Shown piece after piece: positions 8,451 through 56,695 of a DNA stretch of 64,000 bases. The DNA is taken from the IMG/VR virus record IMGVR_UViG_3300022602_002120, positions 64,001 through 128,000 of that record, one strand, 5' to 3'. The stretch comes from a virus. The translations under genes were made by a program, and so were the position numbers. Numbering within the stretch: the first letter of the stretch is position 1; each line of letters starts with the position of its first letter. The notes under the pieces are model-generated. The model did no database searches and was not told where the DNA came from. It saw only the letters and a list, made by a program, of their open reading frames with translations.

Positions 8451-8468
8451 TAGAAAAACGGAACCATA

Positions 8469-32577: not shown

Positions 32578-33428
32578 AATTACTCAATGACTCTTTAACT
32601 AACTATTTTGATTTTAAATTTAACATGGATTCTGCGGGGAATCAGGTAAGTTGGTGCCCTTATAATTTTGTGGACAATAATAAAAAGAACCTTGTAATCA
32701 CCATTGGTGATTCTTGGACCTGGGGCGCTGATATATGTGATGGCGATGCTACAGAACAAAGACTTAAGGATGTATTTGGAGCAATTATAGCAAATGAACT
32801 TTCAGCTGATTTTTTAAATTTAGGGCAAAGCGGATCTTGTAATTTTCATATACTGCGACGACTAGAAGAACTCGACGCTATCATACCACTCCTCGAATAC
32901 GACAAAATTTTAATAATTTGTGTGTACACAGAGGCATGCAGATCTATAGATAGCGAGTATGATAGAAAAATTGATTATATAAAGTGGTTTAAGAATAATA
33001 ATTTTCAAGATATATTAAAATATCACAATGGTCTATTTCAAGAAACTATTGTTGATCTAGAAAAGAAGCACCCGCATGTCAAATTAGTAATTGGCAATAA
33101 CTTTGTAGAACCAATTGGCATGGATACACGTTTAAATATATTGTCTAAAAATTGGGTAGAAGTATATAATGAACAAGCCATTCATGGCGAATATGTCAGA
33201 CCCTGTTATGTAATGAGCCATTGGGTTTTTGACAAAATTAGAGATTTTATTATTTTGATGTACCCTGATATTGACCGTGTTGAATTTAATAATTGGATGA
33301 TAGGGCTGATAGAAACAGCAAAAGACAGAAAAGAATTTACAATAAATCCAACATATTTTAAAGGTATAAGCCATCCTCTTAAGCTAGGACACAAAATATG
33401 GGCAAATTATATTCTTGAGAATTTATAA
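32574..33428 (+). CDS. SGNH/GDSL-like hydrolase or acyltransferase
   Basis: TIGDSWTWG, NLGQSGSCN, C-terminal SHPLKLGH. Confidence 0.65.
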   Translation: MKLLNDSLTNYFDFKFNMDSAGNQVSWCPYNFVDNNKKNLVITIGDSWTWGADICDGDATEQRLKDVFGAIIANELSADFLNLGQSGSCNFHILRRLEELDAIIPLLEYDKILIICVYTEACRSIDSEYDRKIDYIKWFKNNNFQDILKYHNGLFQETIVDLEKKHPHVKLVIGNNFVEPIGMDTRLNILSKNWVEVYNEQAIHGEYVRPCYVMSHWVFDKIRDFIILMYPDIDRVEFNNWMIGLIETAKDRKEFTINPTYFKGISHPLKLGHKIWANYILENL

Positions 33429-34396
33429 TGAAATATACATTAGAACTTGAGAATGATATATTATGGAATATTATTCCATTGGTTGCTTTTTTAAAAAATA
33501 ACGAAGGCAAAGATATTGAATTAACCGTAAATCAAGAATCTCATTGCCTACGGTTTTGTCGAGTGTATGAACTATTAGATATATTTGAGTTTAACTCTGT
33601 GACAATTTTTACCCGTAACGCATTAGAATATCATGACAAGTATAGAATTATGAATAATAATTGTTCTTGTTCTTGGAATTATTGGTTAGATAACGGAGCA
33701 ACCTACTTTAATCAAAAAACAGATTATAGATGGAACGGAAATAAATTATTTGGATGCTTTTATGGAAGACCGACAGCTGCCAGACTAGGCATAGCAAGTC
33801 ATTTATATAAAGAATATGTTAATAAATCTTTATTGTGTATAAAATTTAAAAATATTAACGAAGATGACCGAAAATTATTTGAGTTAGAACGGTTATATTC
33901 TTGGCACCCAGAAATGTTGCATCTATTATCTAATTTAATTGATAATAATATTAATCAATATTACAATTTTCCAGCATATAACTATGCCAGCGGAGATTAT
34001 GATTTTAATCATCCATTAAACGAGTTATATAGTGATATTTTTGTTGATATAGTAGTCGAAGCACATAATTTAGGTAATAGCTTTTATCCGACAGAAAAAA
34101 TAGCTAGAGCTATATTATGTAAGAAACCGTTTATTGTAATGGCTACAAAAAATTATTTGTATTATTTAAAACAAATAGGGTTTAAAACATTTACTGACTT
34201 GTGGGATGAAAATTACGATTTTCTCTATGGAAAAGATAGATACTATGCTATAATACAATTAATTGACAAATTAGCATCGATGAGTCAAAACGAAATACAA
34301 CAATTACATGAAAAAAGTCAGGATATAGTTGAACATAACTATAATTTATTAACTTCACTTTCATTTAGTAAACTTATAGTGAGAAAGCATGACTAA
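33428..34396 (+). CDS. GT-B glycosyltransferase-like protein (GT10-like TEK motif)
   Basis: DIFVDIVVEAH..FYPTEKIARAILCKKPFIV..GFKTF. Confidence 0.5.
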   Translation: MKYTLELENDILWNIIPLVAFLKNNEGKDIELTVNQESHCLRFCRVYELLDIFEFNSVTIFTRNALEYHDKYRIMNNNCSCSWNYWLDNGATYFNQKTDYRWNGNKLFGCFYGRPTAARLGIASHLYKEYVNKSLLCIKFKNINEDDRKLFELERLYSWHPEMLHLLSNLIDNNINQYYNFPAYNYASGDYDFNHPLNELYSDIFVDIVVEAHNLGNSFYPTEKIARAILCKKPFIVMATKNYLYYLKQIGFKTFTDLWDENYDFLYGKDRYYAIIQLIDKLASMSQNEIQQLHEKSQDIVEHNYNLLTSLSFSKLIVRKHD

Positions 34397-35801
34397 ATCA
34401 AAATTTATGAGCGCAGCAGAAGAAATGAAAGACAAACTAGGTCCTAGTCTTTGCTTGGCTAAATGGCAACAGGTAAGCCTACACCTACCAACAGGACTTA
34501 ACAATAGCTGTTACCATCCCCCATTACATGAGATTGATGCGGCACCTTTAGTGTTTCATCCTAGTGCCTTACATAACACAGCATATAAGAAAGAACAGCG
34601 TAAGAAAATGCTAGAGGGCACTCGTCCTAAAGAGTGTAACTACTGCTGGACCATGGAAGATGCTGGACACTTAAGTGATCGTCACTATCGTAGTGGTGAA
34701 CCCTGGGCGGCAGAACATTATGACACAATTAAAGACCTACCCTGGGATGCTGACGTTACTCCTAGTTATGTAGAAGTAAACTTCAGTCACGGCTGTAATC
34801 TAGCTTGCTCTTACTGTAGCCCACAGTTTAGTACAGAATGGCAGAAAGATATTGATCGTTGGGGTGCTTATCCTACAAGCAAACCTCATAATGCGCCTGA
34901 ACACTTCCAAGGTCGACGCAAACCTATTCCAGTTAAAGATGATAATCCTTATGTAGATGCGTTTTGGTCTTGGTGGCCTGAACTGTATCCTAAACTAAAA
35001 CATTTCCGTATGACAGGTGGTGAACCTCTAATGGACAAGAACACGCATCGTGTGTTCGACTATATCCTAGCGGCACCTAAGAGCGACTTACACGTAGATG
35101 TTACAAGTAACTTTAGCGTAGAGCCAGAACTGTTTAACAAGTATATAGACAAAGTTAAGCAGTTATGTGAAGGCACACGCATTGAACACTTCATGCAGTA
35201 TGTAAGCCTTGACACTGGTATTCCAGAACATGCTAGTTATATTCGTCGTGGCTTAAATCCTAGTAGGGTAGTTGACTATACTACTCGTTTCTTAGAAGAA
35301 ATTCCAGGACGCAATAGCCTAACGTTTATTATTACCATGAACAATCTTAGCATTTTAGGCCTAAAACGCTTGTTAGAAGAAATCTTGTTTTTGCGTAAAC
35401 AATATAGTTCAACTTATCAACGTGTTTGGTTCGATACTCCTGTGCTACGTACACCTAGTTGGCAGAGTCTACAAATACTTCCAGAAAGCTACACTGTGAT
35501 ATTAGCTGATGTAGTCAAGTATATGAAACAGAATCGATTAGACGAAAACAGTGATCGTTTTGATGGTTTCAAAGACTATGAAATACAACGCATGGAACGT
35601 GACCTAGATTGGATGAAGAAAGGCAAGAAACTCAGCGACAAGTATCTACATGAACAACGTGCTGACTTTTACCGTTTCTTCAATGAATATGACAAACGTC
35701 GTGGTGCCACTACCAAGGATGCCCGTGATGAAACATTCTTAGATGTGTTTCCAGAAATGAAAGAATTTTGGATGGAGTGCAAATATCATGCCGAAAATTA
35801 A
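34389..35801 (+). CDS. Radical SAM enzyme with N-terminal twitch/SPASM-like domain
   Basis: CNLACSYC and GGEP; N-terminal CLAKW..SCYH..CNYCW. Confidence 0.9.
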   Translation: MTKSKFMSAAEEMKDKLGPSLCLAKWQQVSLHLPTGLNNSCYHPPLHEIDAAPLVFHPSALHNTAYKKEQRKKMLEGTRPKECNYCWTMEDAGHLSDRHYRSGEPWAAEHYDTIKDLPWDADVTPSYVEVNFSHGCNLACSYCSPQFSTEWQKDIDRWGAYPTSKPHNAPEHFQGRRKPIPVKDDNPYVDAFWSWWPELYPKLKHFRMTGGEPLMDKNTHRVFDYILAAPKSDLHVDVTSNFSVEPELFNKYIDKVKQLCEGTRIEHFMQYVSLDTGIPEHASYIRRGLNPSRVVDYTTRFLEEIPGRNSLTFIITMNNLSILGLKRLLEEILFLRKQYSSTYQRVWFDTPVLRTPSWQSLQILPESYTVILADVVKYMKQNRLDENSDRFDGFKDYEIQRMERDLDWMKKGKKLSDKYLHEQRADFYRFFNEYDKRRGATTKDARDETFLDVFPEMKEFWMECKYHAEN

Positions 35802-36861
35802 TCTGCATACCTTTAATAATCTTCAAGATATAAAATTTTTTGATATTTGTTATAATGTCGCAAATATTGTGCCACACGATGAAATTCATGAGGTGCTCAG
35901 ATGTGATAATCTCAATTATCCTATACTTAATAAAGTAAAAATTATGCAAAATCTTACTCCTATTAGACAATACCTACGCCAAAGTACGAGTAATAAATTA
36001 ATTGTAATTGATTACTTAGAGGGGAATAACTCTATTATGTCGTGGCTAGGTCAGGAAAGAATTGCAGAATATGTAAGATCTAATCAATTGATTATTATAT
36101 CATCGGGGGAATTTGAAAATGGTATTTTTTTAAATTTAGATTTTTTTCTAGGACATATACACAGTACTTATAACCAAGCAATTGCATTAAATACATTTGA
36201 CAAAATTTTTAATCAACTTAATAAACCTTATAAATTTTTATGTTTAAATAAAGCAAAAAGACCTCACCGGGTAGAATTATTAGAATTATTAAAAAATTTA
36301 AATCTATTAGACACCGCACTTTGGAGTGCATTATATGATAATCAGACTATTCCGATGGAATACAACGACTATTTTAATGAGCGAAAGAAAGAAACTACCA
36401 TCAATCAAACTAACCACGATAATCCCTGGATAGATGGTCTTTTAGTTCCGGATCTATATATCGATACATATTTTTCTGTTGTCACTGAGACAAATTTTGA
36501 AATTCCAAGGTGCTATCGTACAGAAAAAATATATAAACCACTATTGATAGGACATCCATTTATTGCGGTGTCGGGATATCATTTTTATCAAGGGTTACAT
36601 AAGTTAGGGTTTAAAACTTTTGGTCATCTAATAGACGAGAGCTTTGATGATATTTTAAATAATAATGATCGATTAGTTAGAATAGCAAACACTATTAACA
36701 ATTTATGTAACAGCAATCTAGTAGAATTTTTAAAAGAAGCAAAACCTATATGTGAATATAATAGAAACTTATACTTTGAATTATTGGGGACAGATCCTTT
36801 AAGAAAATACAATTCTTTAATCAATTTTTTCAATGAACTAATAAATGCCGAAAATACATAA
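35788..36861 (+). CDS. GT-B glycosyltransferase-like protein (GT10-like TEK motif)
   Basis: FLCLNKAKRPHR..YFSVVTET..RTEKIYKPLLIGHPFI..GFKTF. Confidence 0.5.
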   Translation: MPKINLHTFNNLQDIKFFDICYNVANIVPHDEIHEVLRCDNLNYPILNKVKIMQNLTPIRQYLRQSTSNKLIVIDYLEGNNSIMSWLGQERIAEYVRSNQLIIISSGEFENGIFLNLDFFLGHIHSTYNQAIALNTFDKIFNQLNKPYKFLCLNKAKRPHRVELLELLKNLNLLDTALWSALYDNQTIPMEYNDYFNERKKETTINQTNHDNPWIDGLLVPDLYIDTYFSVVTETNFEIPRCYRTEKIYKPLLIGHPFIAVSGYHFYQGLHKLGFKTFGHLIDESFDDILNNNDRLVRIANTINNLCNSNLVEFLKEAKPICEYNRNLYFELLGTDPLRKYNSLINFFNELINAENT

Positions 36862-38224
36862 CGAAACAGACGTACAATACAAACGCAGAGTAATTGACAT
36901 CAAGAGTGCTAGTTTCTGTGCGGCTAAATGGTATAATGCCACTATATGGTTAGGTAGCGGACAAACTACTAGTTGTCATCATCCCTTACCACATCAAATT
37001 GATGTTAACGCGGCCTTGATTAATCCTAGTGCTATTCATAATACACCACAAAAGAAAGAACAACGTCGCCAAATGCAGATAGGCGAGCGTCCTGGTGGTT
37101 GCGAATACTGCTGGAAGATAGAAGACATGTATAAAGACTCTGGGTTATTTAATGGAGTTGATGTACCTGTGCCAATCAGTGACCGTGTGTATAAAACAGT
37201 AATATATAGTGATGAGGATTTAGATCTTGCCTATAATACCCCCGCAGAACATGATGTCAACTTACAGACTCTCGAAATTGCTTTTGATCGCACTTGCCAG
37301 TTTGCCTGTAGCTACTGTAATCCTGCTTTCAGCACTAGCTGGGTACGTGACATTAAACAAAACGGACCTTATGTCAATCTTGTCAGTGATGGTAGGAATC
37401 ACTTTACCCACGTTCATGACAGTAGCCAATTATATAAGCCCACAGAAGTAAATCCCTATGTCGAAGCATTTTTTAAGTGGTGGGAATCAGATCTACACAA
37501 GACATTAAAAGAATTACGTATCACAGGTGGCGAGCCCCTGATGTCGGGTCACACTTGGAAATTAATCGATTGGTTCAGAGAGAATCGCGGTAAGAGCTCT
37601 ACCCGATTGGCTATTAACAGTAACCTAGGATTTGAACAAGATAAATTGGAGCGATTATTAGATGCTACAGAAGGTATTGAACTTGATTTGTACACCAGCA
37701 ATGAAAGCATTGGTAGACACGCAATTTATATACGTGATGGCCTGGATTGGAATCAATGGGCTAGCAATGTTAGTTATCTATTGGATAGTAAAAGACTGCG
37801 CGGCCTACACGTCATGTGTACCATCAATGCCCTATGCTTATTAAGCCTAACAGAATTCCTATGGTCAGTTGTTAAACTTAAACAGAAGTATGGCAAGGAT
37901 TCAATTAACTTCAGTCTAAACATCTTACGCTTTCCTAGCTTCCAAAGTCCACTAATCTTACCATTGGCTATGCGTCAAGAGTTTGCTAATGAATTGAGAA
38001 GATTTGGCGATGCAACCAATGAACAGCTTCATGAATATGAGTTCAACCAATTACAACGATTAATTGAATACTTAAACAATGTAGATAGTCCGCACAGTGG
38101 AGCATTGTCACGTGAAGTATTACAACGTGACTTTAAGCACTTTTATCAGCAATACGATGAACGCCGAGGTAAAGACTTTAAATATACATTTCCACAACTA
38201 GCAGAATGGTATGACACACTATGA
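36845..38224 (+). CDS. Radical SAM enzyme with N-terminal twitch/SPASM-like domain
   Basis: CQFACSYC and GGEP; N-terminal CAAKW..SCHH..CEYCW. Confidence 0.9.
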   Translation: MPKIHNETDVQYKRRVIDIKSASFCAAKWYNATIWLGSGQTTSCHHPLPHQIDVNAALINPSAIHNTPQKKEQRRQMQIGERPGGCEYCWKIEDMYKDSGLFNGVDVPVPISDRVYKTVIYSDEDLDLAYNTPAEHDVNLQTLEIAFDRTCQFACSYCNPAFSTSWVRDIKQNGPYVNLVSDGRNHFTHVHDSSQLYKPTEVNPYVEAFFKWWESDLHKTLKELRITGGEPLMSGHTWKLIDWFRENRGKSSTRLAINSNLGFEQDKLERLLDATEGIELDLYTSNESIGRHAIYIRDGLDWNQWASNVSYLLDSKRLRGLHVMCTINALCLLSLTEFLWSVVKLKQKYGKDSINFSLNILRFPSFQSPLILPLAMRQEFANELRRFGDATNEQLHEYEFNQLQRLIEYLNNVDSPHSGALSREVLQRDFKHFYQQYDERRGKDFKYTFPQLAEWYDTL

Positions 38225-38886
38225 CAATATTAGCGTTTGGATGTTCAGTAACACACGGTGCAGAATTAGTGCATCCAAATCAGCACGAAGATAATGTCAA
38301 ATACAGCTATCCTAATTTAGTAGCCGAAACCTTAGGAGTTGAGTGTAAGAACTTAGCCGTATGTGGTGCCAGCAACGAAGATATTTTTCACAAAACACTC
38401 AATGTATTAAAAGTTACCAAACCTGATATAACCGCGGTTATTGTGGGATGGACTAGCGATGTCAGGGAATATTGGCGAGCAGATGGCAGGGAATGGTTTT
38501 TTATACCTAGTTGGTGTGCAACTAAGCAAATTGGCTCAGACCTAGAATACTTTAAAGATTATACTAGTAAAGATATTAACCTACACCCAAGGATATGTGC
38601 TGACAAAGAAGAATATTTAGAACCGTTAGCCGTAATGTACGACTATTTAATACGTTATAAATTTGATCAAGAAGAATACAAGTATAAGAAGTATAATTAT
38701 ATATCAAGCATTAGAGATTATTGTCAACTACACAGTATTAAATTAATTGAAACTTGTTGTTTAAATCCTACACCAGAAATAATGAATTTAGACGATATCG
38801 GCACTTGGCGCCAAGGATTGGGTCATCCTACAAAAACAGACCATGAACAAATAGCACAGCAGATACTATTAAAATATGAGCGATAA
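38221..38886 (+). CDS. SGNH/GDSL-like protein
   Basis: AFGCSVTHG, NLAVCGASN, GHPTKTDH. Confidence 0.65.
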   Translation: MTILAFGCSVTHGAELVHPNQHEDNVKYSYPNLVAETLGVECKNLAVCGASNEDIFHKTLNVLKVTKPDITAVIVGWTSDVREYWRADGREWFFIPSWCATKQIGSDLEYFKDYTSKDINLHPRICADKEEYLEPLAVMYDYLIRYKFDQEEYKYKKYNYISSIRDYCQLHSIKLIETCCLNPTPEIMNLDDIGTWRQGLGHPTKTDHEQIAQQILLKYER

Positions 38887-40192
38887 ACAACAAGACGACT
38901 ACTATAAAAATCATCATTACTATACACGTAAACCTGTATATATCAGTGAAGACGACCTACGCACAGATCAGTTAGATCGGTTGACTAAAAGTGATGTATT
39001 TTGTATGATACCATGGATACATATTCATGCTTTTCCGGATGGCCGCGCTTATCCATGTTGTTTAGGTGACGACCGACATCCTGTTGGCAACTTTAAGCAA
39101 GACAGTATAGAAACTGTTTGGAATCAAGACGCATATAAAACCATGCGTAAGAACATGCTTGAAGAAACTCCCTGTAAAGAATGTAGTAAATGTTACGAAC
39201 AAGAAGACAGCGGATTTATGAGTATGCGTAACAGCACTAACAAAAATTTCGGGCATCATATCAACATTGTTGATCAAACACTAGCAGATGGAACATTCCC
39301 AGAATTTAAACTACGCTATTATGATGTGCGGTTTAGTAACCTATGTAACTTTACCTGCAGAACCTGTGGTGGTTGGTTTAGTTCAAGTTGGTACACTGAG
39401 GAAGAAGACCTATACGGCAAACGTAACTATCCCAAGATCATGTTTGCAGGTCGCACTGAATTAGACATGTGGGAACAGTTAGAACCACATATACCTTACT
39501 TAGAACAGGTATACTTTGCTGGCGGCGAACCCATGATGATGGAAGAGCATTATCGTATACTTAAAGAACTAGTTAAACGTGAAATGTTTGATGTTAAGCT
39601 AATCTATAACACAAACTTTAGTCGCTTAAACTTAAAAGATGATAATGTACTTGACTATTGGAAGCTGTTCAAGAATGTCAGTGTTGGTGCTAGTTTGGAT
39701 GCTATGGGTCCACGTGCTGAATATATTCGTAAAGGTACTAAATGGGATCAAATTGAACGCAATCGTGAACAGATGTTAGAAGTATGCCCAACTACAGACT
39801 TTTATGTAAGTAGTACAGTTAGTCTATACAATGTACATCACTTACCTGACTTTCATCGAGAGTGGGTCGATAAAGGATATATTAAACATCAAGATTGGAA
39901 TATTAATATCCTTCAAGGTCCTGATCGCGATCGTATTGATGTATTACCTAACCTACTAAAAGATCAAATACGCAATAAGATTGTTGACCATATTGAATGG
40001 TTGACTCCACATGATCATTTAAAACGTGCTGTCAGTGGCTACGAAGGCATAATTAACTTTATGTATCAAAACTCTAAAACACATTTACTAAACGAATTCT
40101 TTCGAGTCAACAACGTACATGATGCGTATCGTAAAGAATCATTTGAAGCTACATTCCCAGAATTACAAACATTGAGAACGTATGTTGCCTGA
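38876..40192 (+). CDS. Radical SAM enzyme with N-terminal twitch/SPASM-like domain
   Basis: CNFTCRTC and GGEP; N-terminal CMIPW..PCC..CSKC. Confidence 0.9.
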   Translation: MSDKQQDDYYKNHHYYTRKPVYISEDDLRTDQLDRLTKSDVFCMIPWIHIHAFPDGRAYPCCLGDDRHPVGNFKQDSIETVWNQDAYKTMRKNMLEETPCKECSKCYEQEDSGFMSMRNSTNKNFGHHINIVDQTLADGTFPEFKLRYYDVRFSNLCNFTCRTCGGWFSSSWYTEEEDLYGKRNYPKIMFAGRTELDMWEQLEPHIPYLEQVYFAGGEPMMMEEHYRILKELVKREMFDVKLIYNTNFSRLNLKDDNVLDYWKLFKNVSVGASLDAMGPRAEYIRKGTKWDQIERNREQMLEVCPTTDFYVSSTVSLYNVHHLPDFHREWVDKGYIKHQDWNINILQGPDRDRIDVLPNLLKDQIRNKIVDHIEWLTPHDHLKRAVSGYEGIINFMYQNSKTHLLNEFFRVNNVHDAYRKESFEATFPELQTLRTYVA

Positions 40193-41360
40193 AAAAATTT
40201 GTATGCTACCTTGGATTAGTATTGAGACTAGCCCAATTGGTACTGCTCGCCCTTGCTGTTTGGCTAAAGATGAAATCCCTGGGTATAATCTCAGAGAGCA
40301 TACTCTTGAAGAAATATATCACAGTAACTATATGCAAGATCTACGTCAAGAATTTTTAGATGGTAACAAACCTAGTACCTGTCAACGCTGTTGGGATGAA
40401 GAAGCTGCTGGCCGTACCAGCAAGCGCATGAACAGTCGCATTAGACTAAAGGAATACTATGACAACGTTGATTGGAATAATCTTAACCCTGATCAGTTAT
40501 GGTTTATTGACCTTAAGTTGGGCAATATCTGTAATCTTAAGTGCCGTATTTGTGGAAGTTGGTCAAGTAGTAAGTGGGCTAAAGAAGAGATTGACTACGT
40601 ACCAGGTATTAATCGTAAAGAACACCTTGCTTACAAGTTTCTCGCTGATGGTGCTTGGCCTAGAGAAAATCCTCAATTCTGGGATAACCTAAAAGCTCTA
40701 CTGCCTAACATTAAATACTTTGAATTCACAGGCGGCGAACCTTTCCTTATTCAACAGCATTTTGATCTATTACAATACGCTGTAGACAACGACTATGCTA
40801 AAAATATTGAAATACACTACAACACCAATGGAACGGTGTTTCCTGACAGCTATGAAATATGGAGTCATTTTAAACACGTTGAAGTAGCATTTAGTATTGA
40901 CAATACTGCTGAACGTTTTGAATACGAAAGGTACGGAGCAGACTGGGCAGAAGTAGAGCATAATTTATGTCGATTTTTTGAACTACGTAATAAAAAATTT
41001 AGTACACAATTATGTTTAACAGTTAATATACAAAATGTCTATTATCTGCCAGAGATGTGTAATTGGTTTGCAAACTTACCATTTGACCATGTATACTTTA
41101 ACATGTTGCACGATCCTTGGCACATGTGTATTAGTAAAATGACATTAGATGCACAGGAACTAGTTATAGATAAATTATCTAATAGTGTTATAGATCCTAA
41201 GTATCGTGCAGAAATTTTACGCATTGTTAAGTTTATTCGTAACGGTGAAGGCAGTGACGGTCGAGAGTTTGTAACTAAGATGAAATTAGCGGATGAATAT
41301 CGTAACCAAAGTTTTTTAACTACTCATACAGAAATTGCCAAGGCCATGGGATATGAATAA
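40182..41360 (+). CDS. Radical SAM enzyme with N-terminal twitch/SPASM-like domain
   Basis: CNLKCRIC and GGEP; N-terminal CMLPW..PCC..CQRCW. Confidence 0.9.
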   Translation: MLPEKICMLPWISIETSPIGTARPCCLAKDEIPGYNLREHTLEEIYHSNYMQDLRQEFLDGNKPSTCQRCWDEEAAGRTSKRMNSRIRLKEYYDNVDWNNLNPDQLWFIDLKLGNICNLKCRICGSWSSSKWAKEEIDYVPGINRKEHLAYKFLADGAWPRENPQFWDNLKALLPNIKYFEFTGGEPFLIQQHFDLLQYAVDNDYAKNIEIHYNTNGTVFPDSYEIWSHFKHVEVAFSIDNTAERFEYERYGADWAEVEHNLCRFFELRNKKFSTQLCLTVNIQNVYYLPEMCNWFANLPFDHVYFNMLHDPWHMCISKMTLDAQELVIDKLSNSVIDPKYRAEILRIVKFIRNGEGSDGREFVTKMKLADEYRNQSFLTTHTEIAKAMGYE

Positions 41361-42369
41361 ACGCAAGTTAATACTCATTGGCTGGACTGATTTTAATAGT
41401 AGCTACATCAATTGGTACCTATCTGAATATTTTGATATCGAACCATACAACCTGAATAAAACTTATGCCAACGACTGTATATTTGTCATTTCTCGTAGTG
41501 AATATTGGCATGAACCAATGGTTGAAAAAATTTTAGAAAAAGGACATAAATTAATATTGGCTAATCAGTGGGAAGCTCAACCGTTTTTCCTAGCAGAACA
41601 ATTTACTCCGTATCTTGATAATATTTTGGTAATACTAGGTTGTAAAAACTCATTGGGATTGGGATGGAAAAATATTATAAATGTTCCAAATTGGTTTTGG
41701 TATAATGAAAGTTTATGGTATACATGTGAGTCTAAAATGAGTTATCACAAATACATACCTAATAGGTCTAATGGTAAATTATTTTTTATGCCTATTAATC
41801 GTGTTAAAGATTTTAGAACACGTATAGTTGATCAATTTAATGATGTGCTAGATCGAGCAATTTGGAGCTATGCACAACAGCATAACGGCGGGCAACATTT
41901 ACCTGTCGGGGATGTTAATCCTGTAGCCAGAATAGCATGGGATCGTCAATTTGAGGAATGGTGGTATAATGATTCATATTTTACCGTAACAGTAGAATCT
42001 TCTGTTGACACAGATCTAACAGCACCGTGTGAATTATTTGTCACAGAAAAAACATTTAAACCTATTGCGTTTCAACATCCGTTTTTAGTATGTGGGATGA
42101 AAGGAACCCTGAAATTTTTACATGATAATGGATTTGAGACATTTAATCATATATTTGATGAAAGTTATGATCAACTTGATTTTTTTGAAAACCGTCTAGA
42201 TAGCGTGCATAATAATATTAAAAATTTTGATACTACTAAGTATTTGGATCCGTTAACTAACGAAAAAATAAAACATAATTATGATAGATTTTATAATAGA
42301 GCAATAGTACTTAACGGTCTTAAAATGGATCTATTAGATCCATTATTGGAGTGGATTAATGCAAATTAA
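41335..42369 (+). CDS. GT-B glycosyltransferase-like protein (GT10-like TEK motif)
   Basis: YFTVTVES..FVTEKTFKPIAFQHPFLV..GFETF. The start may be the ATG at 41353. Confidence 0.5.
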   Translation: MPRPWDMNKRKLILIGWTDFNSSYINWYLSEYFDIEPYNLNKTYANDCIFVISRSEYWHEPMVEKILEKGHKLILANQWEAQPFFLAEQFTPYLDNILVILGCKNSLGLGWKNIINVPNWFWYNESLWYTCESKMSYHKYIPNRSNGKLFFMPINRVKDFRTRIVDQFNDVLDRAIWSYAQQHNGGQHLPVGDVNPVARIAWDRQFEEWWYNDSYFTVTVESSVDTDLTAPCELFVTEKTFKPIAFQHPFLVCGMKGTLKFLHDNGFETFNHIFDESYDQLDFFENRLDSVHNNIKNFDTTKYLDPLTNEKIKHNYDRFYNRAIVLNGLKMDLLDPLLEWINAN

Positions 42370-43003
42370 TATACCATCACTGACATCTAATAGAGGCCAA
42401 CATGTTGATGAATTTGGAATTGTTTGGAATTTGAATTCCGATGGGTTTAGAACTATAGAATTTGATCAGATAGATTTTAATAAACCACGTGCGCTTGCAA
42501 TGGGATGTAGTCACACAAAAGGTAGCGGAGTCAAACAACACGAATCATGGCCCGAAGTACTTAAAGAAAAAATTAATATAGATCAGATCATTAATTTGGG
42601 ACAGTGGGGAGCAAGCAGTGATTATGTTATACGAATTTTACCTGATTGTTTAGAACAATTCAAGCCAGATGTTGTTTTTGTATTTTGGCCAGACTATGTC
42701 AGATTTGAGATTCTTAAAGACGGGATATACAGACAAATTATACCAACGGATAAAGATAGAATTTTATACATAGAATCACATAGTGACGAATTACTGAAAG
42801 AAAATTATGCTAATAATCTTAAAATAGCCGCTGAATTATGTAGAGATCGTGCTGTTAAGTTAATTGGTATTTCGTGGGATGATTTAATACCGGTAATGGA
42901 TCGAGCAGATAAATGGAATAAAGGCGCAGATAATTTACACTTTGATAGCGTCTGGCAACATGGAGTAGCTGAAACTTTTAAGAGATTGTATGAATCAACC
43001 TAA
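42359..43003 (+). CDS. SGNH/GDSL-like protein
   Basis: MGCSHTKG, NLGQWGASS, DNLH (DxxH). Confidence 0.65.
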   Translation: MQINIPSLTSNRGQHVDEFGIVWNLNSDGFRTIEFDQIDFNKPRALAMGCSHTKGSGVKQHESWPEVLKEKINIDQIINLGQWGASSDYVIRILPDCLEQFKPDVVFVFWPDYVRFEILKDGIYRQIIPTDKDRILYIESHSDELLKENYANNLKIAAELCRDRAVKLIGISWDDLIPVMDRADKWNKGADNLHFDSVWQHGVAETFKRLYEST

Positions 43004-44306
43004 ACCTAGCACGTTATGTATGGCACCTTGGGTACACACATATCTAAGCCCACAAACAGAAAGACGTATGTGCTGTGCTAGTCGCGAGCCTGCGCAGAAC
43101 TTTGAACAGTATATAGATACTAAGTCGGGTACGGGCAAGTATATTCCCATTACCCTAGAAGAACATTGGAACAGCCCTCACATGAAAGATGTGCGAGTGC
43201 GTATGCTGGCTGGTGAAACACTACCAGAGTGCGAAGTATGTAATGACAAGTTACTGAACACAAGCGTTTACCGTAGTTATTTTGATAGTATGTTTGGACA
43301 TAAGTATTCACAAGTACTAGAGAATACTCAACCAGACGGAACTACTACACTTCGTCCTGTTAGTTGGGACTATCGCTTTAGTAACTTATGTAATTTCAAA
43401 TGCCGTATGTGTGGAGATATGTTATCTAGTGCCTGGGAGTCAGAACAGCGCACTCACAATATGATCAATTGGAGTAATCCAAAGAATAATTGGATGCGCC
43501 CCGAAATCAAAGAACAAATAACCGAGTTTCAAGACAGTCAAATTGAACAAGAGTTTGCAAATGCTGTAGAACAACATCAAGTAGAAGAAGTATATTGGGT
43601 AGGCGGAGAGCCCTTAATGTACGAACAACATTGGCGCTACATGAAGCGCATTGTTGAACTAGGAGATGGCAAAAATGTATACGCAAGGTATAACACTAAC
43701 CTTAGCCGTGTCGACTATCGCGGTGTCAATCTTTACAGGGACATTTTATCTGGGCTACGTGACTGGCAAATCTGCGCGAGTCTCGACGGAACAGGAGCAA
43801 TTGGAGAGTACATTAGAACAGGCCTTGGATACAGTCACTGGCTTACAAACTTCCGTCAAGGAGTTAAAATCGCAAGTCACCGACGCCAAATGCGAATTGA
43901 CTTTACTCTCACGCTCCCAGGAATGTTTGAAGTCATCAACATTAGCCGCCTTGCTCAAGAAATGGGTGTAGACATACTTGCCAAAGTAGTCTTTAGTTTT
44001 AGTCCCGATATTATTATGAGTCCTTTAGCACTACCTAGGGAGTTGTTAGATCCTTGGGTAGATGAACTATTAGTTGGCCTTGACTCTGAGGGTTACCCTC
44101 AAAATAGCCCACTAAAGGACATACTGATTCAGCTTAAAACTCGCCCAACCTTTCAAGAACAGTGGCCCGATACTTGGAAAGAAAGTCTTGCTCAAGGTAA
44201 ACGGCGTGTGTTACAATTAGAGCATATCCGTGGTGACGATTACACTATGGCTGACATATTATCGACGAGAGCAGATGTTTATGAGTGGTACAAATCAATT
44301 AATTGA
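42990..44306 (+). CDS. Radical SAM enzyme with N-terminal twitch/SPASM-like domain
   Basis: CNFKCRMC and GGEP; N-terminal CMAPW..MCC..CEVC. Confidence 0.9.
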   Translation: MNQPKPSTLCMAPWVHTYLSPQTERRMCCASREPAQNFEQYIDTKSGTGKYIPITLEEHWNSPHMKDVRVRMLAGETLPECEVCNDKLLNTSVYRSYFDSMFGHKYSQVLENTQPDGTTTLRPVSWDYRFSNLCNFKCRMCGDMLSSAWESEQRTHNMINWSNPKNNWMRPEIKEQITEFQDSQIEQEFANAVEQHQVEEVYWVGGEPLMYEQHWRYMKRIVELGDGKNVYARYNTNLSRVDYRGVNLYRDILSGLRDWQICASLDGTGAIGEYIRTGLGYSHWLTNFRQGVKIASHRRQMRIDFTLTLPGMFEVINISRLAQEMGVDILAKVVFSFSPDIIMSPLALPRELLDPWVDELLVGLDSEGYPQNSPLKDILIQLKTRPTFQEQWPDTWKESLAQGKRRVLQLEHIRGDDYTMADILSTRADVYEWYKSIN

Positions 44307-45402
44307 TACAATAGAAATTGTCCTACGTGGGCAGGACAGCCTCTTATCTGTTTATATTGATGTATTTGATAACAGTTTGAGTCATAAATGGTTAGTATCT
44401 CTCAACACTCTACTAAAAAATAATTATCATTTAGAAAAGAATTATTGTTTCTTTGGATTTGCTGATGGTCCTCGTGATGGTAAATTAATTGTTGAGCAAA
44501 TTAATTGTAGTATACAAGCAATCAATGAAGCCAATATCGGATACAAGATTGATGATTATTTTACTTTAGAAAATAGTATAGTTTCTGGTAAAATAATTCC
44601 TGAGCACTTATATCCACTAGGACAACGGCCTGCTAATTTACCAGGCGAAGTTAACCATGATCATTTTAACAATCTGCATCGTTATTTTGAGGATCTACAG
44701 GGAGTAAGTGGTCGCATGACTGAATATTATAATCTTGCAGATTCCACTGTACGATGGCATATCAGACAATTAAATCTATTGTGTCACGAATTTGAAAGTT
44801 GGGCATTAAGTAATAGAAAAAAATATACAGCACCAGACTGGGTACGCCCTAGTCAACTTATGTGTTGGTTAACAGCACCGAGATTTATCCTTACTGAAGA
44901 TGATTATGATCTATTTGGAGTCGAAACAATGAATCGTCCTCTTGGCGGAGTATATGTGGGTGTTAACAAAGCTGTAGGCAAACATCATTGGGAAGTCTTT
45001 GTAGACGAAGCAGGATATAATCCCAATATGATAATTGAAAATTTAACCACAACTACTTTGCGTAGTCAACTTGAGGCAGCTGGCGATTTTGATATAGAGT
45101 GGGGAAATAACCCTGGTGAATATGAATGGCAAAAGAAACATCTGGCAGATTTTAGACAATGGCTAATTAATAATAATTTTGATCCAGCAGATAAAACATT
45201 AACCATTGGGCATCCGCAAGTAGGACAAGTTAATCTAATTCGCAGTTTTGGTACTGATAATTATAAAGATATTTGGGCAAAGTTAGAGCAACATTTAGAT
45301 GTATTCAGTATTAGAACCAAAGAAGAATATGCTGAATATGATTATCAATGGAGCGATAATGATTTTGCCGCTAGACAAGTTGCTATTATAGGTAATCAAT
45401 GA
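44230..45402 (+). CDS. Hypothetical protein (start probably nearer 44280-44305)
   Basis: 390-aa ORF with LHRYFE and LCHEFE motifs; no family recognised. Confidence 0.6.
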   Translation: MVTITLWLTYYRREQMFMSGTNQLIDTIEIVLRGQDSLLSVYIDVFDNSLSHKWLVSLNTLLKNNYHLEKNYCFFGFADGPRDGKLIVEQINCSIQAINEANIGYKIDDYFTLENSIVSGKIIPEHLYPLGQRPANLPGEVNHDHFNNLHRYFEDLQGVSGRMTEYYNLADSTVRWHIRQLNLLCHEFESWALSNRKKYTAPDWVRPSQLMCWLTAPRFILTEDDYDLFGVETMNRPLGGVYVGVNKAVGKHHWEVFVDEAGYNPNMIIENLTTTTLRSQLEAAGDFDIEWGNNPGEYEWQKKHLADFRQWLINNNFDPADKTLTIGHPQVGQVNLIRSFGTDNYKDIWAKLEQHLDVFSIRTKEEYAEYDYQWSDNDFAARQVAIIGNQ

Positions 45403-45959
45403 TGATTATTGCTGGCGGGGATAGTATGGTATGGGGTAGTGAGTTAGCTGATAGTCCTCATGGCGGCCACGATGGATACAGTTCTAATACTTTTGCAGCA
45501 TTATTGGCTAAAGATAACTATGTTTGTGCTGCATATCCCGGTATAGGTAATAAAGAAATAGTTCAACGAATAATAGAAGCATTAACGTTAACAGATCCAA
45601 CTGGCGTCCTAGTCTGCTGGACTTGGCCGAGCCGAGATAATAAAATTCACAGCGATGAAGAAATAATACATCTTCAAGAATATTTAGAACATTATAATAT
45701 TCCTTATTTGTTTACCTGTGTAGATAACTGTATAGTTACAGATAATCCTAAAATTAATTGGGATCACTGGTACTTATTTCCGCCAGGCATAGAATTGTAC
45801 GAAACTCTACAACCAAGAGGATTTTATCAATGGGCTGTAGAAAATAAGTACAATATAGGCCCAGAACATCATCCGTTAGAGCAAGCACACGTTGATGCGG
45901 CCAATTTAATGAGGAATAAATTCAATGAACTGGTTAAAAAATCTAATCAATCGAGTTAA
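45399..45959 (+). CDS. SGNH/GDSL-like protein
   Basis: AGGDSMVWG, AYPGIGN, HHPLEQAH. Confidence 0.65.
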   Translation: MMIIAGGDSMVWGSELADSPHGGHDGYSSNTFAALLAKDNYVCAAYPGIGNKEIVQRIIEALTLTDPTGVLVCWTWPSRDNKIHSDEEIIHLQEYLEHYNIPYLFTCVDNCIVTDNPKINWDHWYLFPPGIELYETLQPRGFYQWAVENKYNIGPEHHPLEQAHVDAANLMRNKFNELVKKSNQSS

Positions 45960-46026
45960 ACTAGAAATAGCATACCGCAAGAAGCTTAAAGAGCTTCGCA
46001 AAAGAGATCCTTTTATTTACAAATAA
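45925..46026 (+). CDS. Small basic 33-aa protein (not in the ORF track)
   Basis: MNWLKNLINRVKLEIAYRKKLKELRKRDPFIYK; GAGGAA Shine-Dalgarno upstream; TAATG stop/start overlap with 46026. Confidence 0.75.
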   Translation: MNWLKNLINRVKLEIAYRKKLKELRKRDPFIYK

Positions 46027-47443: not shown

Positions 47444-48093
47444 TTAATAATATACTAGCCATTGGCGATAGTTATACCTATGGATCGGAACTTGAAAATC
47501 CAGGGCGTGATTCTTGGCCGATGCAATTGGCAATTAAGTTAAACAGCTATGTAACTAACTTAGGTATGCCTAGTAGTAGTAATGATAGAATCTTCAGATT
47601 GGCAATTGAACACACACTTGAATTACAATATGATTTAGTAATTTGCGCCTGGACTGAAGTGTCTAGACTAGATTTATGGGCTAATGACCGGGAGTTTCAA
47701 GTAACATCAGCTAGTGTTGATTATCATGCTAAACAGTATCCTTGGATTAAAGAATATTATGCTAGACACTATGATGACAGACATAGTACTAAAACTTGGT
47801 TAACCAGAGTGTTAGCACTACAAGAATATTTTAAAAATAAAGGTCAGCGATACATCTTTGCTAACATGCAACCTAACAATGAGTATCGCGAACATTATAC
47901 AAAATTAGGCCTAACTAAATTTATAGACCAAATTGATACTGATAATTATTTAGGTTGGCCGGAAGGCGAAGGTATGCACGCTTGGATAGGTGATGCAGAA
48001 ATTGGGTCATGTGGCCATCCACTTGAGCTTGGACATAAACGTATAGCGGAAAAGTACTATGAACATATTAGGAATATCGGCTGGCTTTCATGA
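47440..48093 (+). CDS. SGNH/GDSL-like protein
   Basis: IGDSYTYG, NLGMPSSSN, GHPLELGH; GTG start overlapping the upstream TGA. Confidence 0.65.
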   Translation: MINNILAIGDSYTYGSELENPGRDSWPMQLAIKLNSYVTNLGMPSSSNDRIFRLAIEHTLELQYDLVICAWTEVSRLDLWANDREFQVTSASVDYHAKQYPWIKEYYARHYDDRHSTKTWLTRVLALQEYFKNKGQRYIFANMQPNNEYREHYTKLGLTKFIDQIDTDNYLGWPEGEGMHAWIGDAEIGSCGHPLELGHKRIAEKYYEHIRNIGWLS

Positions 48094-49555
48094 TGCCGCT
48101 GTTACATTAATCGACGAACAAGGCAAGATCTTGTTCGCAGGACATGCTGAACGTTACAGCAAGATTAAACATGACAGTGTATTAAATGTCCCTTTGATCA
48201 GAGATGCGTTGCGATATGGTAGTATAGATCAGATTGCCTACTATGAACGTCCATGGGTTAAAAAGACTCGTCAACTATATGCAGGTCAATGGAGTGAACT
48301 TAAAACTCCGTGGACTGTTGCAGGTATATTAAAAGCTCAATTACCCAAGTTACATTTACATAAATTACCAATTAAGTCGTATAATCATCACTTATCACAT
48401 GCGGCGGCAGGATTTCAAACAAGCTCATTTACAGATGCCACTGTAGTGGTTATTGATGCTATCGGTGAGTGGGATACTATTAGTATTTGGCATGCGTATT
48501 TTGATGACCACGGCAACGCTAAGTATCAAAAACTTTGGGGACAACAATATCCACATAGTATTGGACTAATGTATTCAGCATTTACCAAGTATGTGGGATT
48601 AAAACCCATGGATGAAGAATACATTTTAATGGGCATGGCTGGTTGGGGTAAACAGATCAGATGGGATGAAATAGAACAGCTTAAAGATAGTATATTAGGT
48701 GATGAAGGTAATTTTACATTCAAACATAACTTCCATCTAGGATTACCTGGTAAGTTACCTGTAGATTGGTCTGATGAAAACATAGCATTTGCAGCACAGT
48801 ATATAGCAGAAGATTTAATTGCCAGCGTAATGATGAAAGCAAGTAAATTAGGCTATAGTGAAAATTTAGTATACTGTGGCGGTGTAGCACTTAATTGTAG
48901 TGCGAATAGAATATTAGGGGAATATTATGATAACATTTGGATTATGCCTAATCCTGGCGATGCTGGGTCTAGCCTTGGCGCGGCTGCAATGGCTTTGGGC
49001 AGAAGGTTGGTTTGGAAAGATGCTTTCCTTGGCTTTAACATTCCTGGTCGTTATCCTGTTAAAGATATCATTTCCGAGTTAACCACAAATAAAATTTGTG
49101 GCGTGGCGAGCGGGCGGGCTGAGTTTGGCCCGCGAGCCCTTGGTAACCGTAGTTTATTAGCGGACCCTAGAGGTCCAGACATTAAGGATCGAGTAAATGA
49201 AATCAAACGTAGACAAAAGTTTAGACCTTTTGCACCTGTTATACTTGAGGAACTGGTACACGAATATTTCGATATGCCTCCTGGTTGGGATCGTAGCCCT
49301 TATATGCAGGTCGTGGCTCGTTGCCTGCATCCTAACCAGTTTCCTGCTATTCTACATGTTGATGGTACATCTCGCGTGCAGACAGTACCAAAAGATGGCA
49401 GTGGAATCAGACAACTCTTAGAACAATGGTATACTTGGACAGGATGTCCTATGCTGCTTAACACCAGCTTAAATGTCAGAGGCGAACCAATGGTTAATAA
49501 TCGTAAAGATGCAGATCGGTTTGAAAGACTATATGGCATAAAGGTTATGTCGTGA
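48059..49555 (+). CDS. O-carbamoyltransferase (NodU/CmcH/TobZ family)
   Basis: GFHDAAV..ERYSKIKHD, HHLSHAA, VIDAIGE, GRAEFGPRALGNRSLLADPR, FRPFAP, HVDGTSRVQTV, LLNTSLNVRGEP. Confidence 0.92.
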   Translation: MNILGISAGFHDAAVTLIDEQGKILFAGHAERYSKIKHDSVLNVPLIRDALRYGSIDQIAYYERPWVKKTRQLYAGQWSELKTPWTVAGILKAQLPKLHLHKLPIKSYNHHLSHAAAGFQTSSFTDATVVVIDAIGEWDTISIWHAYFDDHGNAKYQKLWGQQYPHSIGLMYSAFTKYVGLKPMDEEYILMGMAGWGKQIRWDEIEQLKDSILGDEGNFTFKHNFHLGLPGKLPVDWSDENIAFAAQYIAEDLIASVMMKASKLGYSENLVYCGGVALNCSANRILGEYYDNIWIMPNPGDAGSSLGAAAMALGRRLVWKDAFLGFNIPGRYPVKDIISELTTNKICGVASGRAEFGPRALGNRSLLADPRGPDIKDRVNEIKRRQKFRPFAPVILEELVHEYFDMPPGWDRSPYMQVVARCLHPNQFPAILHVDGTSRVQTVPKDGSGIRQLLEQWYTWTGCPMLLNTSLNVRGEPMVNNRKDADRFERLYGIKVMS

Positions 49556-51196: not shown

Positions 51197-52505
51197 TGTT
51201 TTTATAATGGACCTGGGCGGCAATGAAGACAATGTACAGAGTCTTGTACAGCGTTTTCCGCACGCTCGAGTGGTAAGATACTACGATAATCACTTAGCCA
51301 CGTTAAAACGCTGTATTTCACGTTGTAGAACACCTTATGCTTGGGTACTTGCTAGTGTTTGTGACTACAGTAACTTTGATTTTGACTACCGAGCTGTTCC
51401 GTGGGAAGCCTATCAACTACACTGTTGGCATAGTGATCACGAGAAGTTCGGCGACACCTTCCTGGTGAACGTAAGTGAATTTAATAAGCAACAGGATATT
51501 CCTTTACTGGAATGGTATAAGGAAGTTAATTGGCATTATCCGGGTGTACCTAGATTGCCTGTACCTGTTGTTACATACATCAGTGATGACCTAGTTGAGG
51601 TAGTCAAGGCTACTAAATTTGATACTCCATATGTCCTATTCAAACGTGACACGGACTCAACTGTAAACTTTGCGCCTATTTTATGGCGAGATCGAAGTGT
51701 ACATACCTTTAACAAGGCAAACAGTGTATCGTTAGTACCCCGTGAAATTTCCGCACATTTAAAGCATCAAATCTACGATTATCCACATATTTTGAAGCAA
51801 AAAGACTGGTTTTTAGGCGATAATAACCTCGATATTATCTACATCAGCAACGGAGAACCGCAGGCAGAACAGTGGTATGAACACTTATTATCAGTGGTAG
51901 CGGCTAGTGGTGCTACCAATTGGGTACGTAGAGTTAAAGATGTTAATGGACGTAGTGAGGCATATAAAGCTGCAGCTAATGCCAGTCAAACAGATTGGTT
52001 CTTTACTGTGTTTGCTAAATTAGAAGTAGTAGCAGACTTTGATTGGTCTTGGCAACCAGACTATCTACAAGAACCTAAACACTATATCTTTAACAGTCGT
52101 AATCCTGTTAATGGATTGGAATATGGACACATGGGCATTATTGCCTACAACAAGCAACTAGTACTTGATACAGATGAACATGGATTAGACTTTACTCTAA
52201 GCAAGCCACATGCTGTGGTCCCTGTATTAAGTGCTATTGCCCACTATAATACCACACCCGAACTAACATGGCGCACAGCATTCCGTGAAGTGTTAAAACT
52301 TGTAGATGATGTAGAAAAGACTGGAAGTATCGAAAGTCGTTATCGTTTAGATGTTTGGCTCAATGAAGGCGAGCATTGGAGCACGCAAGGTGCAACTGAT
52401 GCTGTTGAATACTACAATAATGTTGCTGGTGATATGGATAAACTCTTACTGAGTTTTGAGTGGGCTTGGTTGAAAGAATACTACTCTAAGAAGTATACTG
52501 TTTAA
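51189..52505 (+). CDS. Two-domain glycosyltransferase-like protein
   Basis: The C-terminal half DIIYISNGEP..RRVKDVNGRSEAYKAAA..NPVNGLEYGHMG..AWRTAFRE-like aligns with 31684. Confidence 0.55.
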   Translation: MFDVFIMDLGGNEDNVQSLVQRFPHARVVRYYDNHLATLKRCISRCRTPYAWVLASVCDYSNFDFDYRAVPWEAYQLHCWHSDHEKFGDTFLVNVSEFNKQQDIPLLEWYKEVNWHYPGVPRLPVPVVTYISDDLVEVVKATKFDTPYVLFKRDTDSTVNFAPILWRDRSVHTFNKANSVSLVPREISAHLKHQIYDYPHILKQKDWFLGDNNLDIIYISNGEPQAEQWYEHLLSVVAASGATNWVRRVKDVNGRSEAYKAAANASQTDWFFTVFAKLEVVADFDWSWQPDYLQEPKHYIFNSRNPVNGLEYGHMGIIAYNKQLVLDTDEHGLDFTLSKPHAVVPVLSAIAHYNTTPELTWRTAFREVLKLVDDVEKTGSIESRYRLDVWLNEGEHWSTQGATDAVEYYNNVAGDMDKLLLSFEWAWLKEYYSKKYTV

Positions 52506-53601: not shown

Positions 53602-54517
53602 AATACTGTTTTAAGCCTTGTTCAAAGTCAATTTTAGGATCATAGCCTAGATCGTTGCGTGCCCGATCTATATTCAAACGTCCACGTTTAGGAAAACTAA
53701 GATCACGATCTAATAATTCTATAGTGCCCTGTCCTGCTACGCTAACAGCAAGTTCGGCAGCGTCCTTTAAGGTCCAAATGCGATCAGCGGAACGGGTAAT
53801 ATTATATGTATGGCCATTTGCAGCATCTAAGGTTGTAGCTAACACAATACCTTGAGCTGTGTCAGTGACATGTGTAAAGTCTAAGACTTCACTGCCACCT
53901 TTAACACGTAGAGTTTCACCACGCATGGCGGCTGTTAGGAATTTACTTACCACACGATCCTCTACATCACGTTCACCATATACAGCACTAGGGCGAACAA
54001 TAGTATAATTTAAATAACGACCATAGTCTTCTACTAGACGCTCGCCCATGAGTTTCATAATACCATATTGTCCTACTGGGCTAGGATTTTTATATTCGCT
54101 GGTATCTGATCCAAAGTCACCATAGACCATCGAACTTGAAACATAGACAAATTTTTCACAATGCTCACGTGCTATTTCTAATAGATTAGTTAGGCCATTA
54201 CACATAACATCTGTGGCTAGTCTAGGATCTTGTTCAACTACTTTCTGACGCGGAAAACTTGCTAGGTGTACAATAACATCAATTTCGTTATTAAGTACCA
54301 AGCTGTTAATTAGTGTTTGATCACGAATATCAACTTTGTATACTTCGCTAGTAATGCGTTTTTCACGTAGACTGTTTAGATATACTAGTTCACTGGTAGG
54401 AATAAAGCCATAGGTAGTAGCTGTATCAACTACAATACACTCATGTCCTTGTGCTTCTAGTAAGCGGACAACATTGTGCCCAATGAAGCCTAATCCACCA
54501 GTGACAAGATATTTCAT
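53561..54517 (-). CDS. NAD-dependent NDP-sugar epimerase/dehydratase (extended SDR)
   Basis: TGGLGFIG, SSSMVYG, YGIMK (YxxxK), RPSAVYG, DFTHV. Confidence 0.92.
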   Translation of the reverse strand: MKYLVTGGLGFIGHNVVRLLEAQGHECIVVDTATTYGFIPTSELVYLNSLREKRITSEVYKVDIRDQTLINSLVLNNEIDVIVHLASFPRQKVVEQDPRLATDVMCNGLTNLLEIAREHCEKFVYVSSSMVYGDFGSDTSEYKNPSPVGQYGIMKLMGERLVEDYGRYLNYTIVRPSAVYGERDVEDRVVSKFLTAAMRGETLRVKGGSEVLDFTHVTDTAQGIVLATTLDAANGHTYNITRSADRIWTLKDAAELAVSVAGQGTIELLDRDLSFPKRGRLNIDRARNDLGYDPKIDFEQGLKQYYDWYNENPVLWRR

Positions 54518-56689: not shown

Positions 56690-56695
56690 TTTATT

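Follow-up and report, generated by a model that had tools for sequence, protein, structure and literature searches.

What does a virus do with five radical S-adenosylmethionine (SAM) genes placed behind its tail-fiber genes, and are their products, in which a Cys-rich module precedes the barrel, of a new kind? We analyzed this question in a window of 64,000 nucleotides (bases 64001-128000 of the 188.8-kb IMG/VR virus record IMGVR_UViG_3300022602_002120), in which the five genes, named here RS1 to RS5, occupy a 10-kb stretch. The five proteins are new members of N_Twi_rSAM, a family catalogued in NCBIfam (NF033640, twitch domain-containing radical SAM protein) and functionally uncharacterized. 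Since the genes sit among sugar-handling genes behind the tail-fiber genes, radical tailoring of a sugar or glycan is the most likely function of the five enzymes, and we give it about an even chance. Literature searches (family name, N-terminal twitch, radical SAM with O-antigen or polysaccharide) found no paper on N_Twi_rSAM function, and the copy of the PDB that we searched holds no solved structure of a member. An earlier sequence-only reading of the window had called this radical chemistry unexplored, and both searches agree with it.

All five open reading frames (ORFs) picked out by that reading are present on the plus strand, and the CxxxCxxC and GGEP motifs that it described are invariant in an alignment of the five proteins (C136/C140/C143 and G210-G211-E212-P213 in RS1 numbering). 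Equally invariant are four N-terminal Cys residues (C22, C41, C83 and C86). The first belongs to a C..KW motif in RS1 and RS2 and to C..PW in RS3-RS5, the next is followed by Tyr, His or Cys, and the last two form CxxC. All five proteins match NF033640 with 286-405 bits (E 1e-85 to 1e-121; curated cut-off 170 bits), the matches spanning profile positions 1-2 to 387-398 of 398, and a six-frame search of the genome gave the same result. The motif pattern is far beyond chance, as each protein fits one curated full-length hidden Markov model (HMM). Pfam Radical_SAM matches were also found among the five proteins, some of them just under the cut-off.

The N-terminal module itself is matched by the Pfam SPASM profile (PF13186) over all of its 67 positions in RS3 (residues 43-106, E 5e-12) and RS4 (residues 7-71, E 5e-8), and just below the cut-off in RS5; in RS1 and RS2 its homology to SPASM/twitch follows indirectly, from the family model NF033640 only. 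In the SPASM/twitch subgroup in the sense of SFLD subgroup 17 the module is C-terminal to the barrel, whereas in all five proteins it is N-terminal and the post-barrel region is helical and without conserved Cys. The architecture was thus already on record in the databases, having been noted by the curators of NF033640. The C-terminal tail motif, which the sequence-only reading had attributed to four of the proteins as D..R..F followed by FP(E/Q), is shared less widely than that: D..R..F is present in RS1-RS4, FP(E/Q) in RS1-RS3 only, and RS5 retains the Asp alone. The consensus of the tail in 86 relatives is LD..R.E.F...FPEL, in which the Asp is invariant and the Arg, Pro and Glu are conserved to 90% or more.

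The only PDB sequence match of RS3 is BtrN (2-deoxy-scyllo-inosamine dehydrogenase, PDB 4M7S/4M7T), the founding twitch enzyme (BtrN residues 155-252 versus RS3 residues 29-120, E 0.007). The alignment places RS3 C43, C61, C103 and C106 opposite BtrN C169, C187, C232 and C235, with a spacing of C-x17-C-x41-C-x2-C in RS3 versus C-x17-C-x44-C-x2-C in BtrN. We take these four BtrN residues to ligate the enzyme's auxiliary [4Fe-4S] cluster. Homology of the Cys-rich module to SPASM/twitch, which the sequence-only reading had proposed, is thus borne out by PF13186, by NF033640 and by the BtrN alignment. In the 86 relatives each of the four N-terminal Cys is either invariant or conserved to at least 90%, no further conserved Cys follows them, and the SPASM motif lacks its second half. 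Because the four Cys nearly match the BtrN spacing and the second SPASM half is absent, a single fully Cys-ligated auxiliary [4Fe-4S] cluster is the expected cofactor of the five enzymes. The auxiliary cluster of BtrN is fully Cys-ligated and serves in electron transfer, as an acceptor, rather than in substrate binding. By analogy, we infer an electron-transfer role for the auxiliary cluster of N_Twi_rSAM, and the five enzymes probably function in the manner of BtrN-type twitch enzymes. Nothing in the analysis pointed to either objection named in the sequence-only reading, a failure of the N-terminal Cys to bind a cluster or an already characterized function of the family.

An AlphaFold2 model of RS3, built with the 86 relatives (predicted local distance difference test (pLDDT) 94, predicted template modeling score 0.91), consists of the N-terminal module (residues ~40-135), the barrel (~145-355) and a four-helix C-terminal region (~359-436). 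When the model was compared with the PDB using Foldseek and VIA-align, only the barrel matched, at Z 11.7-12.4 (BlsE, DesII, CteB, anSME, SuiB and MoaA). LipA and LIAS are also among the structural matches, their alignment starting near residue 39-42. The fold search yields no functional assignment, because all of its top rows are tied.

The gene order of the window recurs on three contigs (L015, L023 and L005): GT-A-like genes, a TEK-motif protein, RS1, a second TEK-motif protein (absent from L023 and L005), RS2, RS3, RS4 (absent from L005), a further TEK-motif protein, RS5, a 390-amino-acid (aa) partner, a peptide gene and a carbamoyltransferase. L015 and L023 (NZ_JBBAKG010000001.1 and NZ_JBBAKG010000003.1; 183 and 148 kb) come from a metagenome bin labeled 'Haliscomenobacter sp.'. 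Since both encode a baseplate wedge 47% identical to that of the window, they look like genomes of related giant phages that were binned with a bacterium; L005, assigned to a 'Legionellales' bin, is probably of phage origin as well. RS5 is the best conserved of the five enzymes across the related phages (733-738 bits).

In a quick maximum-likelihood tree of 56 members, in which long branches were flagged, each window enzyme falls into its own clade with the orthologs from related phages (Shimodaira-Hasegawa-like approximate likelihood ratio test 97-100). Clade support is 100 for RS1, 97 for RS2, 98 for RS4, and 100 for RS5 together with one gene of the Bacteriovoracaceae. Two deep groups are seen, RS1+RS2 and RS3+RS4+RS5. 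The nearest bacterial row for RS1, RS2, RS4 and RS5 is in each case a different member of one eight-gene array (locus L007) of Bacteriovoracaceae UBA6144. Identity to the enzyme's own orthologs is roughly 48-64% (where the tree output gave a figure) versus 19-34% among the five proteins. Because each enzyme has orthologs of its own and four of the five have a separate nearest member in the L007 array, the set is old and looks like one multi-step pathway. This observation suggests that the enzyme types already existed as a set before the cassette split between phages and bacteria; the five enzymes being anciently diverged and separately conserved, five different steps fit better than one step in five copies.

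The family is large, and its distribution in bacteria is patchy. Searched against representatives at 50% identity, RS3 matched 10,785 of them at E<=0.001 and 1,492 at the stricter limit of E<=1e-30; among clusters at 90% identity, more than 7,000 matched at E<=1e-5. The top 120 of the latter are 78-92% identical to RS3, so this phage lineage is common in metagenomes. Relatives in species-representative genomes belong to the Bdellovibrionota, Elusimicrobiota, Bacteroidota, Acidobacteriota, Myxococcota and others. Members above the cut-off were found in 26 of 121 sampled genomes of the Bdellovibrionota, with up to 11 copies per genome, and in none of 14 control genomes; every bacterial member in our data derives from a metagenome bin. 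When the phage collection was searched with the RS3 and RS1 proteins, matches came only from Vibrio phages K566/K567 and Ralstonia phage RsoM2USA, which are cultured carriers of the family, and a nucleotide search with the 10-kb radical SAM stretch found no match among cultured phages.

From five copies within 10 kb the sequence-only reading had inferred a repeated substrate type, which is plausible; its interpretation as a whole is partly supported. The copy number is no peculiarity of this phage, as tandem arrays are habitual in N_Twi_rSAM in bacteria and phages. The L007 array (positions 6037-18033) packs eight family genes into 12 kb and adjoins the genes for ribosomal proteins L21/L27 and obg. 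Among phages, about five copies were counted in Vibrio phage K566 (two members above the cut-off and three more with strong matches below it) and two in Ralstonia phage RsoM2USA. Beyond the window, the virus record analyzed here encodes one more member (226 bits), its sixth, and three radical SAM-like proteins that score below the cut-off. Natural fusions in relatives join the family domain to TPR repeats, to Sel1 repeats or to a GT2 glycosyltransferase (P0194). Two N_Twi_rSAM units within one polypeptide were observed in P0122 (1106 aa; L009 3450-6770), P0123, P0126 and P0127.

The genes around RS1-RS5 are listed in Table 1. They form part of an uninterrupted run of plus-strand genes (~29.4-52.5 kb of the window) with abutting or overlapping ends. 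The run is headed by the GT-A-like genes; for the one at 31684-32577, Pfam, NCBIfam, PHROGs and PDB sequence searches gave nothing significant, with a faint Pfam GT2 hint only. The three TEK-motif paralogs share a block E...TEK...P...GF.TF...DESYD that is conserved in 12 sequences, and the first of them has no match in Pfam, NCBIfam or PHROGs. An AlphaFold2 model of the second (pLDDT 61.6 overall, 73-97 in the C-terminal half) has GT10 fucosyltransferases (7yro and 2nzw) as its top Foldseek matches, followed by other GT-B enzymes, at E ~0.01 for a low-confidence model; GT10 is also the lead of a protein-language-model comparison (Atlas, 0.81). That the TEK-motif proteins are glycosyltransferases is plausible, not established, because three weak lines agree.

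Seven SGNH-like paralogs with weak GDSL Pfam matches and GDS..G start motifs in their translations are interleaved with the radical SAM genes, and two of them (46026-46664 and 47440-48093) score above the Pfam threshold for the functionally uncharacterized family DUF6071. The partner gene that follows RS5, whose true start is probably an ATG near 44281, has no significant match in Pfam, NCBIfam, PHROGs or PDB sequences; nothing was found in Pfam, NCBIfam or PHROGs for 51189-52505. Between the carbamoyltransferase and a conserved 438-aa protein, within the plus-strand run, lie a P-loop kinase resembling adenosine 5'-phosphosulfate kinase and a dCMP deaminase (50334-51196). Two genes of sugar metabolism, a DegT/DnrJ/EryC1-type aminotransferase and an epimerase/dehydratase, converge on the run from the other side.

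Table 1. Coordinates of the radical SAM genes and of other features (window positions; the last row lies elsewhere in the record)
Feature	Position	Strand	Remarks
RS1	34389..35801	+	470 aa; NF033640 289 bits; subfamily with RS2
RS2	36845..38224	+	459 aa; NF033640 286 bits; 34% identical to RS1
RS3	38876..40192	+	438 aa; NF033640 405 bits; structure modeled
RS4	40182..41360	+	392 aa; NF033640 342 bits; start overlaps RS3 end
RS5	42990..44306	+	438 aa; NF033640 290 bits; tail motif mostly lost
Three GT-A-like proteins	29706-30515, 30503-31369, 31684-32577	+	operon head; up to 428 bits in related phages
TEK-motif protein, paralog 1; GT10-like (fucosyltransferase-like) candidate glycosyltransferase	33428..34396	+	related to 35788-36861, E 4e-12
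TEK-motif protein, paralog 2	35788..36861	+	structure modeled
TEK-motif protein, paralog 3	41335..42369	+	related to 35788-36861, E 1e-13; orthologs in L015 and L023
SGNH/GDSL-like protein	38221..38886	+	between RS2 and RS3
Further SGNH-like paralogs	32574-33428, 42359-43003, 45399-45959, 46026-46664, 46652-47443, 47440-48093		
RS5 partner	44230..45402	+	390 aa; ortholog right after the RS5 ortholog in L015, L023 and L005, 218-460 bits
33-aa strongly basic peptide	45925..46026	+	
NodU/CmcH-type carbamoyltransferase	48059..49555	+	Pfam Carbam_trans_N E 2e-35, Carbam_trans_C E 2e-49; PHROG 1601
DegT/DnrJ/EryC1-type sugar aminotransferase	52486..53601	-	Pfam PF01041, 270 bits; PHROG aminotransferase; convergent with operon
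NAD-dependent nucleoside diphosphate (NDP)-sugar epimerase/dehydratase	53561..54517	-	Pfam Epimerase 146 bits, GDP_Man_Dehyd 119 bits; convergent with operon
Baseplate wedge	5031-8450		33-37% identity to closest cultured giant phages
Sixth N_Twi_rSAM member and further radical SAM-like genes	G000:C1:5951-7153, 56620-58028, 146684-147394	- (all)	outside the window

The window opens with baseplate and fiber genes (hub, wedge, an ORF of 4567 aa and fiber proteins), which also indicate what kind of virus carries the cassette. The closest matches of the wedge are in cultured giant phages of 288-490 kb (Agrobacterium Atu_ph07, Sinorhizobium Phosso, Salicola SCTP-2 and E. coli jumbo phages), and close homologs of RS3 sit on contigs of 330-340 kb. 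The genome is probably a fragment of an uncultured giant myovirus with a full size of roughly 350 kb, as the 188.8-kb record is rated 53% complete. An identity as a pelagimyophage, suggested by the published radical SAM cassettes of those phages (PMC7029224), was considered and rejected on the wedge matches, the completeness at this length and the contig sizes of the RS3 homologs. The 4567-aa protein is encoded by a single ORF (8469-22172) between the baseplate wedge and the fiber genes.

To describe the bacterial neighborhoods of the family, we sampled 21 loci on large contigs and collected 133 nearest neighbors. The most frequent families are PhyH dioxygenases (9 of 133) and other radical SAM proteins (6), followed by GT1, GT2, ABC ATPases and methyltransferases (3 each) and by carbamoyltransferases, epimerases/dehydratases and GDSL proteins (2 each). 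Genes for B12-radical SAM and canonical SPASM proteins are also seen repeatedly next to N_Twi_rSAM. In Henriciella and Saprospiraceae loci the family gene lies beside PhyH and WelO5 dioxygenases, a ~405-aa (Wzt-sized) ABC ATPase and methyltransferases, a layout that may resemble ABC-transporter-dependent polysaccharide clusters. Carbamoyltransferases occur near N_Twi_rSAM genes in 10 loci, both phage and bacterial, and homologs of the window's epimerase/dehydratase do so in 6 loci. Arrays of GDSL-like paralogs accompany the family in four Bacteroidota loci (L053, L042, L011 and L055).

Radical tailoring of a sugar or glycan could proceed as follows. Each enzyme would bind a SAM-cleaving [4Fe-4S] cluster at CxxxCxxC and a second, fully Cys-ligated [4Fe-4S] cluster in the BtrN-type twitch module before the barrel. 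The 5'-deoxyadenosyl radical would take a different C-H hydrogen in each enzyme, either from a nucleotide sugar or from a residue of a growing glycan, and the auxiliary cluster may accept an electron from the substrate radical, as it does in BtrN. The predicted products are keto, epimerized, deoxy or otherwise edited sugars, which the neighboring enzymes might then aminate, carbamoylate, acylate or deacylate, and transfer, the final target being presumably the virion or the host surface.

Several observations weigh against a sugar substrate. No member of N_Twi_rSAM has a tested activity, and the tied top rows of the fold search do not separate sugar-acting from peptide-acting radical SAM enzymes. 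The commonest bacterial neighbor, the PhyH dioxygenase, is not a sugar enzyme, some arrays (such as L007) have almost no recognizable partner genes, and most close neighbors in the window belong to no recognizable family of Pfam, NCBIfam or PHROGs. The glycosyltransferase reading of the TEK-motif proteins comes from weak matches (E ~0.01) to a low-confidence model, and the TPR and Sel1 fusions suggest protein partners.

These fusions, which point to protein-protein contacts, lead to the main rival explanation, namely that the five enzymes modify peptides or proteins by introducing crosslinks, epimerizations or similar changes into the 33-aa peptide, the tail fibers or the 4567-aa protein. Most characterized SPASM/twitch enzymes modify peptides or proteins, the nearest HMM domain families include many peptide maturases (with weak scores), and the operon comes directly after the fiber genes. 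The peptide gene lies in the operon and has copies 70-82% identical in related phages (L015 16324-16422, L023 15601-15699 and L005 15489-15587), but in these relatives its companion is the carbamoyltransferase rather than a radical SAM gene. Its end coincides with the start of the carbamoyltransferase gene in L015 and L023, whereas four SGNH-like genes intervene in the window, and none of the bacterial loci yielded a copy. A weaker copy (45%) of the peptide was seen in Ralstonia phage RsoM2USA. No peptide-recognition (RRE/PqqD-like) domain was detected in the five proteins with Pfam and NCBIfam, and a search for a precursor peptide upstream of the L007 array met genes for ribosomal proteins and obg but no candidate. 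With the surrounding enzymes being typical of sugar pathways, we consider peptide or protein modification unlikely.

Another small molecule or polymer (a lipid, a nucleotide, a DNA base modification or a secondary metabolite) might be tailored instead, with the glycosyltransferase-like genes serving a separate purpose. The recurrence of PhyH/WelO5-type dioxygenases, methyltransferases, B12-radical SAM and canonical SPASM genes beside the family in bacteria is in line with such a role, as is the presence of the P-loop kinase and dCMP deaminase in the operon; carbamoyltransferases, too, act on non-sugar substrates. However, the partners that are co-conserved with the five enzymes across phages are the TEK-motif proteins, the GT-A-like proteins and the carbamoyltransferase, a fusion to GT2 exists and NDP-sugar enzymes adjoin, whereas no gene with a specific link to lipid or DNA modification turned up beside the five. 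A non-sugar substrate is therefore improbable in our judgment. That the paralogs are redundant or decaying duplicates without separate roles, as their tandem arrangement and the eroded RS5 tail might suggest, is hardly credible, because the catalytic Cys, the auxiliary Cys and the GGEP motif are preserved throughout, the ORFs have no internal stops, and each enzyme is far closer to its conserved orthologs in well-supported clades than to its paralogs.

Thus, radical tailoring of a sugar or glycan remains the preferred reading of the five enzymes. It can be further speculated that the five enzyme types constitute a fixed and ancient multi-step radical pathway, which predatory Bdellovibrio-like bacteria and giant phages would share as a cassette. 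Its product would be a sugar or glycan heavily edited at its C-H bonds, or a compound other than a sugar, made by reactions new for radical SAM enzymes, with a role of the permuted twitch cluster unlike that in BtrN. As a whole, this broader proposal is doubtful.

N_Twi_rSAM is a large and widespread radical SAM family with a permuted auxiliary-cluster module and no assigned reaction. The present window contributes to its description the match of four Cys to the BtrN ligands, the ortholog-by-ortholog correspondence with the Bacteriovoracaceae array and the probable giant-myovirus identity of the carrier. Diverged members standing side by side in giant phages and predatory bacteria argue for a multi-step, oxygen-independent editing pathway, probably acting on a surface or virion sugar near host-recognition genes. 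Identification of the substrate would add new radical chemistry and could explain virion decoration or host-surface remodeling by these phages.

Phages rich in radical SAM genes, carried in exchangeable modules, have been described before. They include Campylobacter phages CP220/CPt10 (PMC2853527) and pelagimyophages, whose cassettes lie in host-recognition clusters (PMC7029224); kinship of either to N_Twi_rSAM is not implied. Compared with the catalogued family, the five proteins have the same module order, Cys pattern and tail motif, with no architectural difference. In anSME, CteB, SuiB, MoaA and BlsE/DesII, whose barrels superpose on the RS3 model, the Cys module is C-terminal, unlike in the five proteins, which also differ from other SPASM/twitch enzymes in having neither the second SPASM half-motif nor a detected peptide-recognition domain. 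The auxiliary cluster site is located before the barrel in LipA and MiaB/RimO as well. These are sulfur-insertion enzymes with N-terminal auxiliary clusters, but their motifs differ and their modules are not homologs of SPASM/twitch. BtrN, which acts on a sugar-like alcohol, has an auxiliary module homologous to that of the five proteins. Its overall similarity to them is marginal, and its module follows the barrel, whereas theirs precedes the barrel and is complemented by an extra helical C-terminal region of ~80 residues with a conserved motif of its own.

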